A stretch of 64,000 nt of DNA from Minisyncoccia bacterium (GCA_038211765.1 JBBQVG010000001.1:1837-65836); one strand, 5' to 3'. Positions 45,750-61,224 are shown, counted from the stretch's first letter. Notes: generated by a model not told the origin, from the letters alone. Made by a program: numbers and translations.

Positions 45750-45773
45750 AGTGATGATTATAGCTTGTCTTGG

Positions 45774-45880
45774 CCTTCCATAAACCCTCGCTCGACGCTA
45801 TATTTGCTCTGCCCATATATCGTCTTCGCTCGGGTTATATGAAAGTGGCCTTTCATAAACCCTCGCTCGACGCTATAATA
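45774..45880 (+). promoter_or_regulatory. duplicated promoter-like element upstream of pilM (TTCATA-N16-TATAAT/TATATT) x2
   Basis: 'cctt(c/t)cataaaccctcgctcgacgctata' at 45774-45802 and 45849-45877. The second copy has a perfect TATAAT 11 nt before the pilM ATG region. Confidence 0.45.
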
Positions 45881-45889
45881 AACCCTATC

Positions 45890-46996
45890 ATGGCCATTTC
45901 CTCTCTGCTGTCCTCATTTTTCAAAAAAGAAACAAGTGTTCTCGGCGTTGATATCGGCTCATCGGCCATCAAAGTCGTCCAAGTTAGAAAGAAACACGGT
46001 AAGGCCGTGTTGGAAACCTACGGAGAATTGGCGCTCGGGCCTTATGCGGGTATAGAGGTGGGACGTGCCGCAAATCTTCCTCCGGAAAAGATCATCGAAG
46101 CCGTGCGTGATATTCTGCGTGAAGCAAAGACAACCACGACATCATGCGGTGCGGCACTACCTCTGTCTTCGAGTCTTATTACATTTATCAATATCCCGCC
46201 TGTGCCTGAAAAACAGATAAAGGATGTCATCGCCATCGAAGCGCGCAAATATATTCCAGTTCCTTTGAGTGAAGTACTTCTGGACTGGTCCATCATCCCC
46301 AAAGAAGAAAGTTTTGTCACAGATGAGAAAGCAGAGACTGCCCAAAAGCAATCCAACGAAGTCTTGATTGTGGCTATTCATAATGAGTTCATCAGTACAT
46401 ACCAACGCATCATGACCGGTAGTGGTCTCCAGCCGAGCTTCTACGAGATCGAGATTTTCAGCTCCATACGCGCCGTTGTCGACCAAGGTATGGGCACGAC
46501 CATGATCATCGATATGGGTGCACGTGCTACAAAACTATATATCGTCGAGCGAGGGATTCTCCGGGCATCTCATATCATCAATAAAGGAAGTCAGGACATC
46601 ACCCTGGCTTTGTCGAAGGCACTTGCGATCAGCGTGGGTGAAGCGGAGAACCTCAAGCGTGTGCACGGACTAAAGGGCGGAGCAGAATACAAGGAGCTCA
46701 CAGAGATCATCACCGTCAATCTGGATTATGTTTTTTATGAAGCCAACAGCACCCTCCTTGCATACCAAAAGAAATTTGCCAAAAATATAAACAAGGTCAT
46801 TTTGACTGGTGGGGGAGTCCTCCTGAAAGGATTTACAGAATTGGCGAAGATCAGCTTCCAAACCGACGTTATCTACGCCAACCCTTTTTCGAAGCTCGAA
46901 ACCCCAGCATTCCTCGCCCAAGAGTTCGCCCAAGCTGGTCCAGAATTCGCCGTCGCTATCGGGGCGGCATTGCGCCGTCTTTCTGAGGTAGAGTAG
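45890..46996 (+). CDS. pilM: type IV pilus assembly protein PilM (actin-like ATPase fold)
   Basis: 'VLGVDIGSSAIKVVQVRK' is the actin/FtsA-like phosphate-1 motif. ~370 aa. The track ORF start 45770 lies in the repeat, so ATG 45890 is preferred. Confidence 0.8.
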   Translation: MAISSLLSSFFKKETSVLGVDIGSSAIKVVQVRKKHGKAVLETYGELALGPYAGIEVGRAANLPPEKIIEAVRDILREAKTTTTSCGAALPLSSSLITFINIPPVPEKQIKDVIAIEARKYIPVPLSEVLLDWSIIPKEESFVTDEKAETAQKQSNEVLIVAIHNEFISTYQRIMTGSGLQPSFYEIEIFSSIRAVVDQGMGTTMIIDMGARATKLYIVERGILRASHIINKGSQDITLALSKALAISVGEAENLKRVHGLKGGAEYKELTEIITVNLDYVFYEANSTLLAYQKKFAKNINKVILTGGGVLLKGFTELAKISFQTDVIYANPFSKLETPAFLAQEFAQAGPEFAVAIGAALRRLSEVE

Positions 46997-47042
46997 TAAA
47001 ACCTAGCAAAGCAGAATTCCTTGTGGAAGCTGTCATATAAAG

Positions 47043-47750
47043 TTAAATTATTTCGTCCTCAAACCAAGGTTTTACACTAGTACCTTTCTTTGTTGAGTAC
47101 ATATAAGAGATCGGTAGGGTCTTTGGAAAGATTTCATTGAGTTCACTACCATTAAAAGTCAGAAAGATACAGCCTTGATACTTTTCATCTATTTTCTGTC
47201 GCTCTAATTGATTTTGTAAATAATATAGCTTTGCAGCAACAGAGTAATCATTTGAAGAAGTGTAGTGTTTGTGTGCAGAGTTAAGGAGAATTTCAAATAG
47301 ACCTTTTTCAATGTCCACTGATTTAACAAGTGGCATGAGCCGGTCATTATCGTAAGTCACAAGTTCACTCAGATACGTCGTCTTAAATTCATGACTCTTA
47401 GCAAGATTACTTACAGAATCAAAATATATCTTTGTACTCTCTTTGGAATGACCATTCAGTTTCGCATGAGTATCAGTAAGTAAAATCAATAGCTCAGTTC
47501 CAGGTAAGTGTACAGTTCGAATGCGATCAAAAAACTCCTGCAGGAAATTGAATGTTTGCTTTTCAGGCTCACCAGCATTGTTTTTGTTTCCCTTACCCCA
47601 ATAGGTAACGAACTTTATAGGTTTATAATTATCAACTGCGGACTGGACGACTTCCTTCATTTTTTCGTAGTTAAGAGGCTGTTCTCTTTTGAACTTCCAT
47701 GTGTCAAAACTGCTTATTATTTCCTCTGTGAGAGTTTCATTATTTGACAT
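47043..47750 (-). CDS. hypothetical protein co-oriented and overlapping with AsnB-like gene
   Basis: 235 aa, 11-nt overlap with upstream asnB-like stop. AT-rich. No domain recognised. Confidence 0.45.
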   Translation of the reverse strand: MSNNETLTEEIISSFDTWKFKREQPLNYEKMKEVVQSAVDNYKPIKFVTYWGKGNKNNAGEPEKQTFNFLQEFFDRIRTVHLPGTELLILLTDTHAKLNGHSKESTKIYFDSVSNLAKSHEFKTTYLSELVTYDNDRLMPLVKSVDIEKGLFEILLNSAHKHYTSSNDYSVAAKLYYLQNQLERQKIDEKYQGCIFLTFNGSELNEIFPKTLPISYMYSTKKGTSVKPWFEDEII

Positions 47751-59280: not shown

Positions 59281-59281
59281 T

Positions 59282-60019
59282 ATGAATAAAAGAACAAAGC
59301 ATAGGGGTATAGAATATGGAATGTCATCCGCAAAGGGGATGAGTTTTCCCTCTGTTGGCGCTCCTCGCCCTATGTATTCTCGCGCCTTTACTCTCGTCGA
59401 GATGATCGTCGCTCTGGGGATTTTCTCTATCGTTGCGGTGGTGGCCTTGGGCGCTCTGGTCAAGATCATCTCAGTCAACCAGAAAGCTCAGACCTTGCAT
59501 CAGGCTATGACCAACCTCAGCTTTTCTCTCGAGTCAATCTCTCGCGAGTTGCGTACTGGTGCAAAATTGCACTGTGAGTCGGGCACAGCGCTCAATATAC
59601 TGTTGTGGGAACTTACCGATACTCGAGAGTGCCCGAGTGGCGAAGTGTCTGACGGCACAGGGGCAGTGTTCGCCTTCAATTCTACGCGACTTAAATATGA
59701 CGCAGGAGGTATACCATTGTGTAGATTGATCTATGCATACAGGCTTCGCCCTGTCGATGCTATGGATCCTACACTGGGATATGTATTGGAAAAGGCAGAA
59801 CAAGCAGATTGCGGCGGTAATGTTGGAATTGGTGGCAATGATTTTGCCCCCATAACAGATCCTGACGTCATTATTACCAGTTATACTATCAAGCTCGATG
59901 ACAACGAATACCCTTTGGTTTTCCTGAAACTATCAGGATATGTAGGGGCCAGCGAAAAGGAGCGTACGTATTTTGATCTGCAGACAGCAGTTTCTCCACG
60001 TGTTCCCAATACCAATTGA
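59282..60019 (+). CDS. minor pilin-like protein
   Basis: '...YSRA|FTLVEMIVALGIFSIVAVVALGAL'. Start uncertain (ATG 59282 gives a long leader; later Met possible). Confidence 0.55.
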   Translation: MNKRTKHRGIEYGMSSAKGMSFPSVGAPRPMYSRAFTLVEMIVALGIFSIVAVVALGALVKIISVNQKAQTLHQAMTNLSFSLESISRELRTGAKLHCESGTALNILLWELTDTRECPSGEVSDGTGAVFAFNSTRLKYDAGGIPLCRLIYAYRLRPVDAMDPTLGYVLEKAEQADCGGNVGIGGNDFAPITDPDVIITSYTIKLDDNEYPLVFLKLSGYVGASEKERTYFDLQTAVSPRVPNTN

Positions 60020-60023
60020 TACT

Positions 60024-60554
60024 ATGAACACCACTCACCACACAACTCGCGCATTCACTATCATCGAGACTCTTGTAGCCGTGGCAATCCTGATGATCGC
60101 TGTCGCTGGACCGCTGGTTATCGCAAGTAGGGGCTTGCGTGCGGCGCTGTATTCACGTGACCAGATGATCGCTTCTCTTTTGGGACAAGAAAGCATGGAA
60201 GTGGTAAAAAATATCAGAAGTAACAATATTTCTTTGGGACTAAATTGGGTTCAATCTTTGGGTACCTGTGTAGTCACCGCCCCCTGTGATGCGAGCGCAC
60301 TCTCCGCTACTATCCGTAGCGGGTGCAGTATCGAATGTAACTGGTCGACTGGATACCCGCTTACTTTTTCCTCCGGATACAGATCCGATGGGCAGGGAGA
60401 GCCGACTCTATTTCGGCGAATGTTCTTCTTGACCCCTATGTCTACGTCAGGTCCAATCGATGAATATACGGTAAATGTAGTTGTGAGCTGGACCGAGGGC
60501 ACCGTCCCGAACGAGTTGCGCCTGACCAGTCAGTTGACTAACTCTACCCGCTAA
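60024..60554 (+). CDS. minor pilin-like protein
   Basis: 'MNTTHHTTRA|FTIIETLVAVAILMIAVAGPLV'. Confidence 0.6.
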   Translation: MNTTHHTTRAFTIIETLVAVAILMIAVAGPLVIASRGLRAALYSRDQMIASLLGQESMEVVKNIRSNNISLGLNWVQSLGTCVVTAPCDASALSATIRSGCSIECNWSTGYPLTFSSGYRSDGQGEPTLFRRMFFLTPMSTSGPIDEYTVNVVVSWTEGTVPNELRLTSQLTNSTR

Positions 60555-60555
60555 T

Positions 60556-61224
60556 ATGACAAAGATCCTGAACACATTACATCTCAAACGAGGATACACC
60601 CTGTTATTTGCAGTACTGGTTGCGTCGCTTGCTCTGGGCGTAGCGGTGTTTATACTTTCGGTAAGTCGCAAGCAGTATATTTTGTCTGCTGCAGCACGCG
60701 AGTCCATGTACTCCATGTACGCATCGGATAGTGGTATAGAATGTGGGGCACTGGATCCTCTTCGTAATGACTGGGGTAATGGGGCAGGATCGCCTTCACG
60801 TTCATTCTCCTGTGCTGGCCTTACTCAGTCGATAACATTTTTAAGAAGGTATCCCGCAGATTTCGATAAGAGTGATAGCAACTTTGACAAATATTATACT
60901 GATATATACGGGGATAAGCACTACGCCTATGTCGATTCTCAGGGCAATACACCCTACCCTCAATATGAGGCAGATTTCCGACTTGGATTCAAAGAGTATT
61001 CCAGGACAAGTCCTACTAGCGGAAAGGAATCAACTTGCGCACTTATGAGTATTATTGGATATACGACTGATCTCAATGGACCCGATGAAAAAAAACATAC
61101 CATCATCCAGTCGCGCGGATACAACGTATGCAAATGGCTTACTTATGGAGTAGAGACTACCTATGGACCTGTTCTAAGCAGTCCCCGTACTGTGGAGCGC
61201 GCACGTCAGTTGATAAACGAATAG
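60556..61224 (+). CDS. minor pilin-like protein (PilX-like)
   Basis: 'LKRG|YTLLFAVLVASLALGVAVFIL'. 4 Cys in the C-domain. Confidence 0.5.
   Translation: MTKILNTLHLKRGYTLLFAVLVASLALGVAVFILSVSRKQYILSAAARESMYSMYASDSGIECGALDPLRNDWGNGAGSPSRSFSCAGLTQSITFLRRYPADFDKSDSNFDKYYTDIYGDKHYAYVDSQGNTPYPQYEADFRLGFKEYSRTSPTSGKESTCALMSIIGYTTDLNGPDEKKHTIIQSRGYNVCKWLTYGVETTYGPVLSSPRTVERARQLINE

Follow-up and report, generated by a model that had tools for sequence, protein, structure and literature searches.

A secretin-less type IV pilus cluster in a Minisyncoccia genome as a typical instance of the Paceibacteria pilus locus

The stretch of DNA analysed here, hereafter the window, comprises 64,000 nucleotides (64 kb) of a Minisyncoccia bacterium (GCA_038211765.1, JBBQVG010000001.1:1837-65836). 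All coordinates refer to the whole window, and the locus examined, at 45.0-61.2 kb, carries the genes of a type IV pilus (T4P). The locus is an ordinary and typical instance of a pilus cluster already known from the candidate phyla radiation (CPR), and very probably represents the vertically inherited, lineage-typical and secretin-less type IVa-like (T4aP-like) pilus cluster of the Paceibacteria (Patescibacteria/CPR). The gene order is comFC (minus strand), pilM, an antisense pair formed by asnB and a gene for a protein of 235 amino acids (aa), pilN, pilO, the gene of a small transmembrane (TM) protein, pilB, the gene of a stand-alone receiver (REC), pilT, pilC, pilin 1, the gene of a REP-associated tyrosine transposase (RAYT; minus strand), pilin 2, pilD and four minor pilin genes (mp1-mp4). 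Gene identities were taken from the listing of open reading frames (ORFs) and from Pfam and NCBIfam scans of the window proteins, and every gene named in an initial annotation of the sequence was present in its place and orientation. The same annotation had described a T4P locus with every component, among them the ATPases of extension and retraction and a receiver domain on its own, and had expected the secretin to be missing. This description holds: the machinery is complete and secretin-less, most of its parts have Pfam matches, and no Secretin domain was found among the scanned ORFs. Throughout, negative domain results refer to the window ORFs that were scanned, which include all those of at least 240 aa, and to the 64-kb window as the stretch searched.

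A scan of a genome collection with PilT yielded 80 related loci, each from a different GTDB species of the Patescibacteria (Paceibacteria). They belong to Taylorbacteria-, Nomurabacteria- and Adlerbacteria-like metagenome-assembled genomes, with a PilT identity to the window of 63-96%. The exact sequence of the window PilT was also looked up in public assemblies and gave no match. The host was thus rightly taken for a member of the CPR, since all relatives matching its PilT are Patescibacteria. When all window proteins were mapped onto each locus, 80/80 were colinear with the window, sharing the order TyrRS - comFC(-) - pilM - pilN - pilO - small TM - pilB - REC - pilT - pilC - pilins - pilD - mp1-mp4 - ligA. 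Median intergenic gaps are 15-100 nt everywhere but between pilC and pilD, the sole variable interval, which spans 0.7-6.8 kb and holds 1-5 pilin genes in the related loci. The four minor pilin genes are colinear in 40-45 loci. The nearest relative among the 80 (L001), which served as reference for nucleotide breakpoints, has a PilB that is 94% identical to that of the window.

The initial annotation had read the presence of every component in a single 15-kb block as an unusual organisation that would mark this genome as special. Such a view has some appeal, as in many model diderm bacteria the T4P genes are scattered. However, the block and its order are common to all of the related genomes, and redundancy among these is countered by the different species they represent and by their range of PilT identity. 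Moreover, the arrangement has already been published for the CPR: PilB, PilT, PilC, PilM, PilN, PilO and PilD are co-localised in numerous CPR genomes from which PilQ is missing (Méheust et al. 2019, PMC6744442), and in locus one of the Saccharibacterium TM7x all T4P components are found together (PMC12206443). In view of the conserved block and these earlier reports the locus must be called typical, and we give next to no credence to the notion that its layout sets the genome apart.

The features of the locus and its flanks are listed in the table below. The hallmarks of a T4aP-like system are all there: a PilB-type and a PilT-type ATPase, a PilC platform and a PilD peptidase, together with the PilM-PilN-PilO alignment complex, the PilN part of which was recognised at the level of the fold only. 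The PilO assignment gains from the orthologues, 45 of 46 of which match PF04350 (best E-value 6.3e-7) and 22 of which match T2SSM_b; the best PDB sequence match was the PilO of M. xanthus (3jc8, E 0.12). For the product of 49504-50169 the fold search was, of all search routes, the one that supported an identity. An AlphaFold model built from 57 homologues (pLDDT 76) combines a TM helix and a long coiled coil with a domain of the beta-beta-alpha-beta-beta type. The orthologues share an invariant N-terminal F-Q-x-S-F-I-P peptide, which presumably corresponds in position to the PilM-binding INLLP motif of PilN proteins. On the basis of the modelled fold, with position and topology, we accept this protein as a predicted PilN. 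The gene of the small TM protein has an orthologue between pilO and pilB in 59/66 loci. Several genes probably start later than their maximal ORFs (pilM at ATG 45890, pilB at 51187, the small TM protein at 50773, pilin 2 at 57218, mp2 at 59282 and mp3 at 60024), and pilM orthologues cover no more than some 90% of the maximal ORF.

Table. Features of the pilus locus and its flanks (window coordinates; family matches with E-values)
Feature	Position	Strand	Remarks
TyrRS/TrpRS-type synthetase	43723-44916		upstream flank
comFC, ComF-family phosphoribosyltransferase-like	45012-45749	-	TIGR00201 comF 6.9e-18, below curated cut-off; phosphoribosyltransferase motif
pilM	45770-46996	+	actin-like ATPase-fold assembly protein; PF11104 2.9e-32; likely start ATG 45890
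Inserted segment between pilM and pilN	46997-49447		GC 38%
Compact PvcA/isonitrile-synthase-like protein, 235 aa	47043-47750	-	part of the apparently foreign cassette; fold-level match
asnB-like glutamine-dependent amidotransferase	47740-49296	-	Asn_synthase (PF00733) 4.4e-49; GATase_7 9e-45
pilN-like bitopic protein, 221 aa	49504-50169	+	N-terminal FQTSFIP peptide, TM helix, coiled coil, ferredoxin-like domain
pilO	50166-50765	+	PF04350 0.0038 for the window protein
Small single-pass membrane protein	50773-51129 (ORF from 50728)	+	Pro/Thr-rich tail; conserved
pilB, extension ATPase	51136-52911	+	T2SSE 1.9e-116; MshEN 1.6e-12; probable start ATG 51187
REC, stand-alone CheY-like receiver, 143 aa	52985-53416	+	PF00072 4.1e-21
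pilT, retraction ATPase	53434-54546	+	T2SSE 1.1e-39
pilC, platform protein	54568-55779	+	T2SSF, two copies, 3.8e-54
pilin 1	55923-56393	+	variable globular domain; N_methyl 1.8e-9; leader MKKYTKG/FTLIELL (slash: cleavage site)
RAYT	56474-57061	-	Y1_Tnp 1.5e-8; HUH (HFH) and YIHLNP motifs
REP copies CAAGACCTACCCTTG	56468-57264: 56468(+), 57068(+), 57174(+), 57250(-)		flank RAYT, bracket the pilin 2 start
pilin 2	57218-57799	+	GspG-like; conserved beside pilD; N_methyl 5e-5; TIGR01710 gspG 2.2e-10
pilD, prepilin peptidase/N-methyltransferase	57806-58612	+	A24_N_bact 4.3e-27; Peptidase_A24 3.4e-10
Minor pilins mp1-mp4	58639-59280; 59282-60019; 60024-60554; 60556-61224	+	tightly packed; class-III motifs in all four and their orthologues
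ligA, NAD-dependent	61266-63497		downstream flank

In a motif scan of the 64 kb the class-III signal sequences numbered exactly six, and each of them falls within the locus. The six prepilins, major and minor, carry the motif (G/A)/(F/Y)T(L/I)x(E/F), where the first slash outside the brackets marks the cleavage site, and Pfam finds N_methyl in all of them except mp4. In mp4 the motif reads G/YTLLF, without Glu5, a form that is invariant among the mp4 orthologues. In many prepilins of the related loci (L002, L004, L013, L014, L028 and others), and in mp2 and mp3 of the window, the residue just before the predicted PilD cut (position -1) is Ala and not Gly (RA/FTLVE). Pilin 1 is the probable major pilin. 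It is followed by an intrinsic terminator (56418-56452) with a 14-bp hairpin (-26.3 kcal/mol, z -5.6) and then UUUU, and it is only 44% identical to its counterpart in the nearest relative, versus 95% for PilC. More specifically, nucleotide similarity to that relative stops at 56054, just past the alpha1 helix of pilin 1, and returns at 57277, which is the N-terminus of mature pilin 2. These breakpoints fit an exchange of cassettes between the conserved 5' segments of the pilin genes (repeat family D1).

From what is known of the families, the parts would work together as follows. PilM, PilN and PilO would form the alignment complex at the cytoplasmic membrane, PilD would cleave and methylate the six prepilins, and the four minor pilins would prime the assembly, on the PilC platform, of a filament in which pilin 1 and/or pilin 2 predominate. 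On PilC and PilMNO, extension would be driven by PilB and retraction by PilT. The pilus would probably serve attachment to a host and/or the capture of DNA.

The cluster resembles the CPR module of Méheust et al. and locus one of TM7x (Nanosynbacter lyticus) in that pilB, pilT, pilC, pilM/N/O, pilD and several pilin genes lie in one locus, in the lack of a PilQ secretin and in the roles proposed, i.e. host attachment, twitching and DNA uptake. It differs from these in its fixed order, in having a small TM protein after pilO and a conserved, stand-alone receiver encoded between the two ATPase genes, and in the presence of comFC upstream and ligA downstream. A similar relation exists to the T4aP of monoderms such as the Clostridia (Melville and Craig 2013, cited in PMC6744442): these share the secretin-less cluster of PilB, PilC, PilD, PilM/N/O, PilT and pilins, the bifunctional PilD and the pilins with class-III signal peptides. 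Unlike them, the window has a PilN too divergent for Pfam or NCBIfam, Ala sometimes at position -1 and a REC gene embedded in the locus. The PilQ (and PilP) of the diderm T4aP was not found, there being no Secretin domain in the scanned ORFs. Neither is the locus of the ComG type (ComGA/ComGB, ComGC-GG, no PilT or PilMNO), as PilT and PilM/N/O are present; the NCBIfam models of ComG pilins match the window pilins below their cut-offs and via the shared N-terminal helix only.

The receiver gene is situated between pilB and pilT in 78/80 loci. Its product has the residues of a CheY-like protein, as predicted from an alignment of 79 sequences: no variation occurs at the acid pocket D25/D26/D27, at the phospho-acceptor D70 or at K122, and the conservation of T100 is 90% or more. 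The best NCBIfam matches were generic and assigned no specific family. In the window the gene has its own -10 box, TGATATACT, separated by 6 nt from the ATG. Over 40-79 orthologous loci, -10-like boxes occur 4-9 nt before the in-frame start of pilM (69%), REC (88%), pilin 2 (61%) and mp1 (82%), versus at most 13% at pilO, pilB, pilT, pilD and mp2-4; in the window, the pilin 2 box (TGGTACAAT) lies 6 nt upstream of the ATG. In L001-L080 the boxes 4-9 nt before the starts of pilM, REC, pilin 2 and mp1 are of the extended type (TGnTAnAAT), visible as 'CYN/WYN/GYN' in the upstream translations. Such extended boxes close to starts imply that leaderless mRNAs are widespread in the Paceibacteria. The motif positions suggest the transcription units pilM-pilB, REC-pilT, possibly pilC, pilin 1, pilin 2-pilD and mp1-mp4, most of which appear to be leaderless. 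In the spacer between comFC and pilM a 32-nt direct repeat is found (45771-45802 and 45846-45877; 97% identical, 75 nt apart), the second copy of which contains a promoter-like TTCATA-16-TATAAT (45852-45879) just before the likely start of pilM. An invertible switch at this position, suggested by a 21-22-nt inverted match between the upstream repeat (45782/45857) and pilM codons at 46537, was set aside: there is no recombinase, inversion would destroy pilM and the match is, by a rough estimate, near chance level.

The conserved, phosphorylatable receiver would thus be paired in one unit with the retraction motor PilT. Because the residues of phospho-transfer are kept in 79 sequences and the gene is apparently co-transcribed with pilT, the receiver most likely acts as a phospho-switch on retraction versus extension. 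The CheY-like regulators PilG and PilH belong to the Chp system of Pseudomonas. Like REC, they are single-domain receivers with a canonical phospho-acceptor pocket and a genetic tie to the extension and retraction ATPases. REC differs in that it sits between pilB and pilT and not in a chemosensory operon, with no CheA-like or other kinase nearby. We found nothing in the literature on a receiver within CPR pilus loci, and a search of the paper on the TM7x pili (PMC12206443) found no response regulator.

Several results weigh against parts of this reading of the locus. PilN is without support from profile models: no Pfam family matched the window protein, a single one of 44 orthologues gave a match at E 0.074, a PDB profile search and the NCBIfam scan gave no support, and an alignment of PilN with PilO by hhalign reached a probability of 1.4%. 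The profile models do bear out PilO, by way of its orthologues, and the first three minor pilins, by N_methyl; the Pfam and NCBIfam scans found no family for mp4, nor a significant one for the small TM protein. The main filament subunit may be pilin 1 and/or pilin 2. The model of the transcription units derives solely from motif positions, a generic scan for sigma-70 promoters and terminators was not above shuffled sequence and was used for individual sites only, and no histidine kinase was found among the scanned ORFs, so that phosphorylation of the receiver is a prediction. Finally, the choice between attachment and DNA uptake draws only on other CPR organisms and on the adjacency of comFC.

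The initial annotation had also proposed that two insertions mark the locus as an evolving region. This holds for the segment between pilM and pilN, in which asnB overlaps the 235-aa gene by 11 nt. Both genes are absent from all 80 related loci. The gap between pilM and pilN in 61 other loci has a median of 65 nt and a maximum of 306 nt, and the alignment to the nearest relative stops at 46995 to resume at 49448. The segment has a GC content of 0.382 versus 0.476 for the remaining locus, and neither a target-site duplication nor terminal inverted repeats were found in it. The cassette is 79% identical in nucleotides to one on an unrelated contig (L088), and the two AsnB proteins share 88% of their aa. 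Judging from its composition and distribution, the segment is a unique, horizontally acquired foreign insertion that does not belong to the pilus machine. Low-GC contigs unrelated to the window (L088, L085/L086 and L090) also have asnB followed by its partner, and there too the two genes overlap by 11 nt. A link between cassette and T4P elsewhere was considered and rejected: T4P genes are absent from all five contigs on which the cassette was found, so that the position of the cassette in the present locus looks incidental.

The asnB product is predicted to be a genuine AsnB (TIGR01536, 345.7 bits versus a cut-off of 267.1; N-terminal MCGI with the Ntn-type Cys2 of the GATase domain, joined to a PP-loop synthetase domain), its substrate being likewise a prediction. 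The 235-aa protein has no Pfam match at E up to 0.1, and thus none to PF05141 (DIT1_PvcA), the family of the isonitrile synthases; the similarity is at fold level only. An AF2 model (pLDDT 90.5) had PIsnA (9dhm; E 2.3e-9, TMq 0.68) and PvcA (3e59) as its top Foldseek matches, followed by catalytic domains of TyrRS. The protein resembles PvcA and PIsnA as its best structural matches (9dhm and 3e59, TM 0.65-0.70), and some of its homologues carry a precomputed PF05141 match. Unlike PvcA and PIsnA it is shorter by about 70-90 residues, and it shows 9-16% identity to those structures. In addition, it is paired with AsnB or, in fused forms, with an AMP-binding enzyme, and not with a PvcB/IsnB-type Fe(II)/2-oxoglutarate oxygenase; the pairing with AsnB is seen here and in L085, L088 and L090, and no oxygenase gene adjoins. 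A word-indexed search returned 20 homologues and a profile search 701 representative proteins with the domain, several of which are C-terminal fusions to AsnB, AMP-binding (ANL) enzymes, CT_C_D or an FAD oxidase (DAO). By the Rosetta-stone argument, such fusions are evidence for a joint action of the domain and adenylate-forming enzymes. The PvcA-like family of some 700 clusters, whose copy in the window has no Pfam or NCBIfam match, may be an uncharacterised enzyme module. We found nothing in the literature on an isonitrile synthase together with an asparagine synthetase. It is our tentative proposal, made with low confidence, that the cassette is not just passive cargo but encodes an undescribed two-enzyme module, a compact PvcA/TyrRS-like domain with an adenylate-forming enzyme, that may make an amide- or isonitrile-type product; in hundreds of protein clusters this domain adjoins AsnB or AMP-binding enzymes or is fused to them. 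The idea that the Paceibacteria-specific receiver, apparently co-transcribed with pilT, is a retraction phospho-switch accompanies it as an independent lead.

The second insertion, the RAYT with its repetitive extragenic palindromes (REPs), is of another nature. The RAYT is present once in the window and matches NF047646 (REP_Tyr_transpos of NCBIfam) with E 1.7e-10 and 40.9 bits, below the 80-bit cut-off. The REP has 7 copies in the window versus 0.11 expected. The features of a REPtron are thus at hand: a Y1 HUH transposase-like gene, REPs on both sides and dispersed ones at 5077/5110. The latter form a REPIN, i.e. two inverted REPs (5075-5126; 24-bp hairpin, -53 kcal/mol), that sits between the genes of a peptidoglycan-binding protein and a DUF4143 ATPase. 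A 30-nt inverted repeat (57171-57200/57238-57267) surrounds the start of pilin 2, and one REP lies in frame within the 20-aa leader of that pilin, MNIQKKSYEGCKGRSCGGGG/FTLVE, which is therefore partly REP-encoded. In L045 a whole REPIN (18-bp hairpin, -40 kcal/mol) is likewise in frame in a prepilin leader. Evidently the cleaved class-III leader tolerates REP and REPIN inserts. The REP core recurs in ligA as well, where 19 nt identical to it (ACAAGACCTACCCTTGTA; 61934-61952) lie in frame and encode QDLPLY; the nearest relative differs there at equal length. A search of the 80 related loci gave no copy of the window REP, which is thus genome-specific. Five other divergent loci (L008, L018, L045, L053 and L054) have a RAYT in the same spacer and orientation, so that the RAYT is not unique to this genome. 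Like the REPtrons of Proteobacteria, the unit has a single-copy RAYT with HUH and Tyr motifs, flanked by palindromic REPs, of which an inverted doublet (the REPIN at 5077/5110) also occurs away from the gene; unlike these, it has a CPR host, recurs at one site inside a pilus locus and has a REP or REPIN in frame in a prepilin leader. We found nothing in the literature on RAYTs or REPINs with pilins.

Both insertions allow a different explanation. The segment with asnB could be a chimera of the assembly, considering the drop in GC (38% against 48%), its uniqueness among the 61 comparable loci and its closest relative on an unrelated contig. However, the gene order of the relatives picks up again precisely at pilN, which no chimeric join would produce; the NCBI contigs that list PilN and the 235-aa protein have the same length, 66,952 bp, and are probably identical; and at just 79% identity to its nearest relative the cassette does not derive from a co-assembled read set of that organism. 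A chimera is therefore very improbable, and the segment is better seen as a horizontal acquisition. The RAYT, in turn, could be a recent and independent mobile insertion into a permissive spacer, unrelated to the pilus locus. Pairwise RAYT identities of 56-71% do not follow those of PilB and PilC (L018 and L054 share 87% in PilB and 60% in RAYT), the element is found at the site between pilin 1 and pilin 2 in only 6 of about 50 genomes, and in L013 it sits elsewhere. Against this, among the RAYTs found, those of the window and of 5/6 RAYT-bearing loci share site and strand, each of these RAYTs has a REP variant of its own with a common GGTAGAC/GGTAGGT loop and covarying stems, which fits long residence and co-evolution, and there is a single copy in the window. 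A recent arrival hence appears unlikely; as the RAYT identities do not track those of the host proteins, both ancient residence and repeated targeting are possible. The RAYT/REP unit is a recurrent resident of the spacer between pilin 1 and pilin 2, neither a mark of recent change nor a part of the machine.

A further alternative concerns the function of the pilus, which could be a dedicated competence pilus, i.e. primarily a machine for DNA uptake, functionally like ComG and co-regulated with the divergent comFC. That comFC adjoins the locus had been correctly noted; in fact, it adjoins pilM divergently in 56/56 loci covering both genes (median gap 70 nt), ligA follows directly downstream in 41 loci, and the CPR are thought to scavenge DNA, with ComEC and DprA widespread among them (PMC6744442). 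On the other hand, the gene set with PilT and PilM/N/O is T4aP-like and not ComG-like, no ComEC, ComEA or DprA domain was found among the scanned window ORFs, the T4P of cultivated Saccharibacteria drive host binding and twitching (PMC12206443), and the two roles are compatible with each other. A dedicated competence pilus is possible, if rather doubtful. By analogy, the pilus probably has a role in attachment and/or DNA uptake, because of the linkage to comFC and the work on Saccharibacteria.

Some observations concern the flanks and the remainder of the window. comFC has an internal, in-frame 15-nt tandem repeat (x4.5; GxGKT repeats) at 45169-45248, and ligA has in-frame tandem repeats of a 33-nt unit (x3.1; 61598-61700) and of a 9-nt unit (x5.8; NVK repeats; 63023-63073). 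Just upstream of the synthetase gene, 42176-43684 (plus strand) encodes a Gly/Thr/Ser-rich secreted protein of 502 aa with a signal peptide and no Pfam match, which is not conserved in the 80 related loci. ARAGORN calls a tRNA-Ile with anticodon TAT (27193-27267) and a tRNA-Ser with anticodon ACT (32166-32253), both putative, and a tmRNA lies at 19977-20344. Other genomes have their own insertions elsewhere in the same locus: the gap between comFC and pilM is 2.8 kb in L008 and 1.9 kb in L043, and that between pilD and mp1 is 2.7 kb in L002 and 1.4 kb in L073.

A one-block, PilQ-less T4P with both motors is the conserved default of the Paceibacteria, and scans of CPR genomes should therefore not single it out as unusual. 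A usable reference map follows from the comparison: gene order is fixed all the way between comFC and ligA, hypervariability is confined to the pilin genes that separate pilC and pilD, and the transcription units are probably leaderless. If our proposal for the cassette is true, its insertion would give the CPR host a capacity for surface modification or for making small molecules that its relatives lack. Thus, three testable leads emerge: an orphan receiver tied to PilT, a REP that is tolerated in a cleaved prepilin leader, and a PvcA-like domain coupled to adenylating enzymes.

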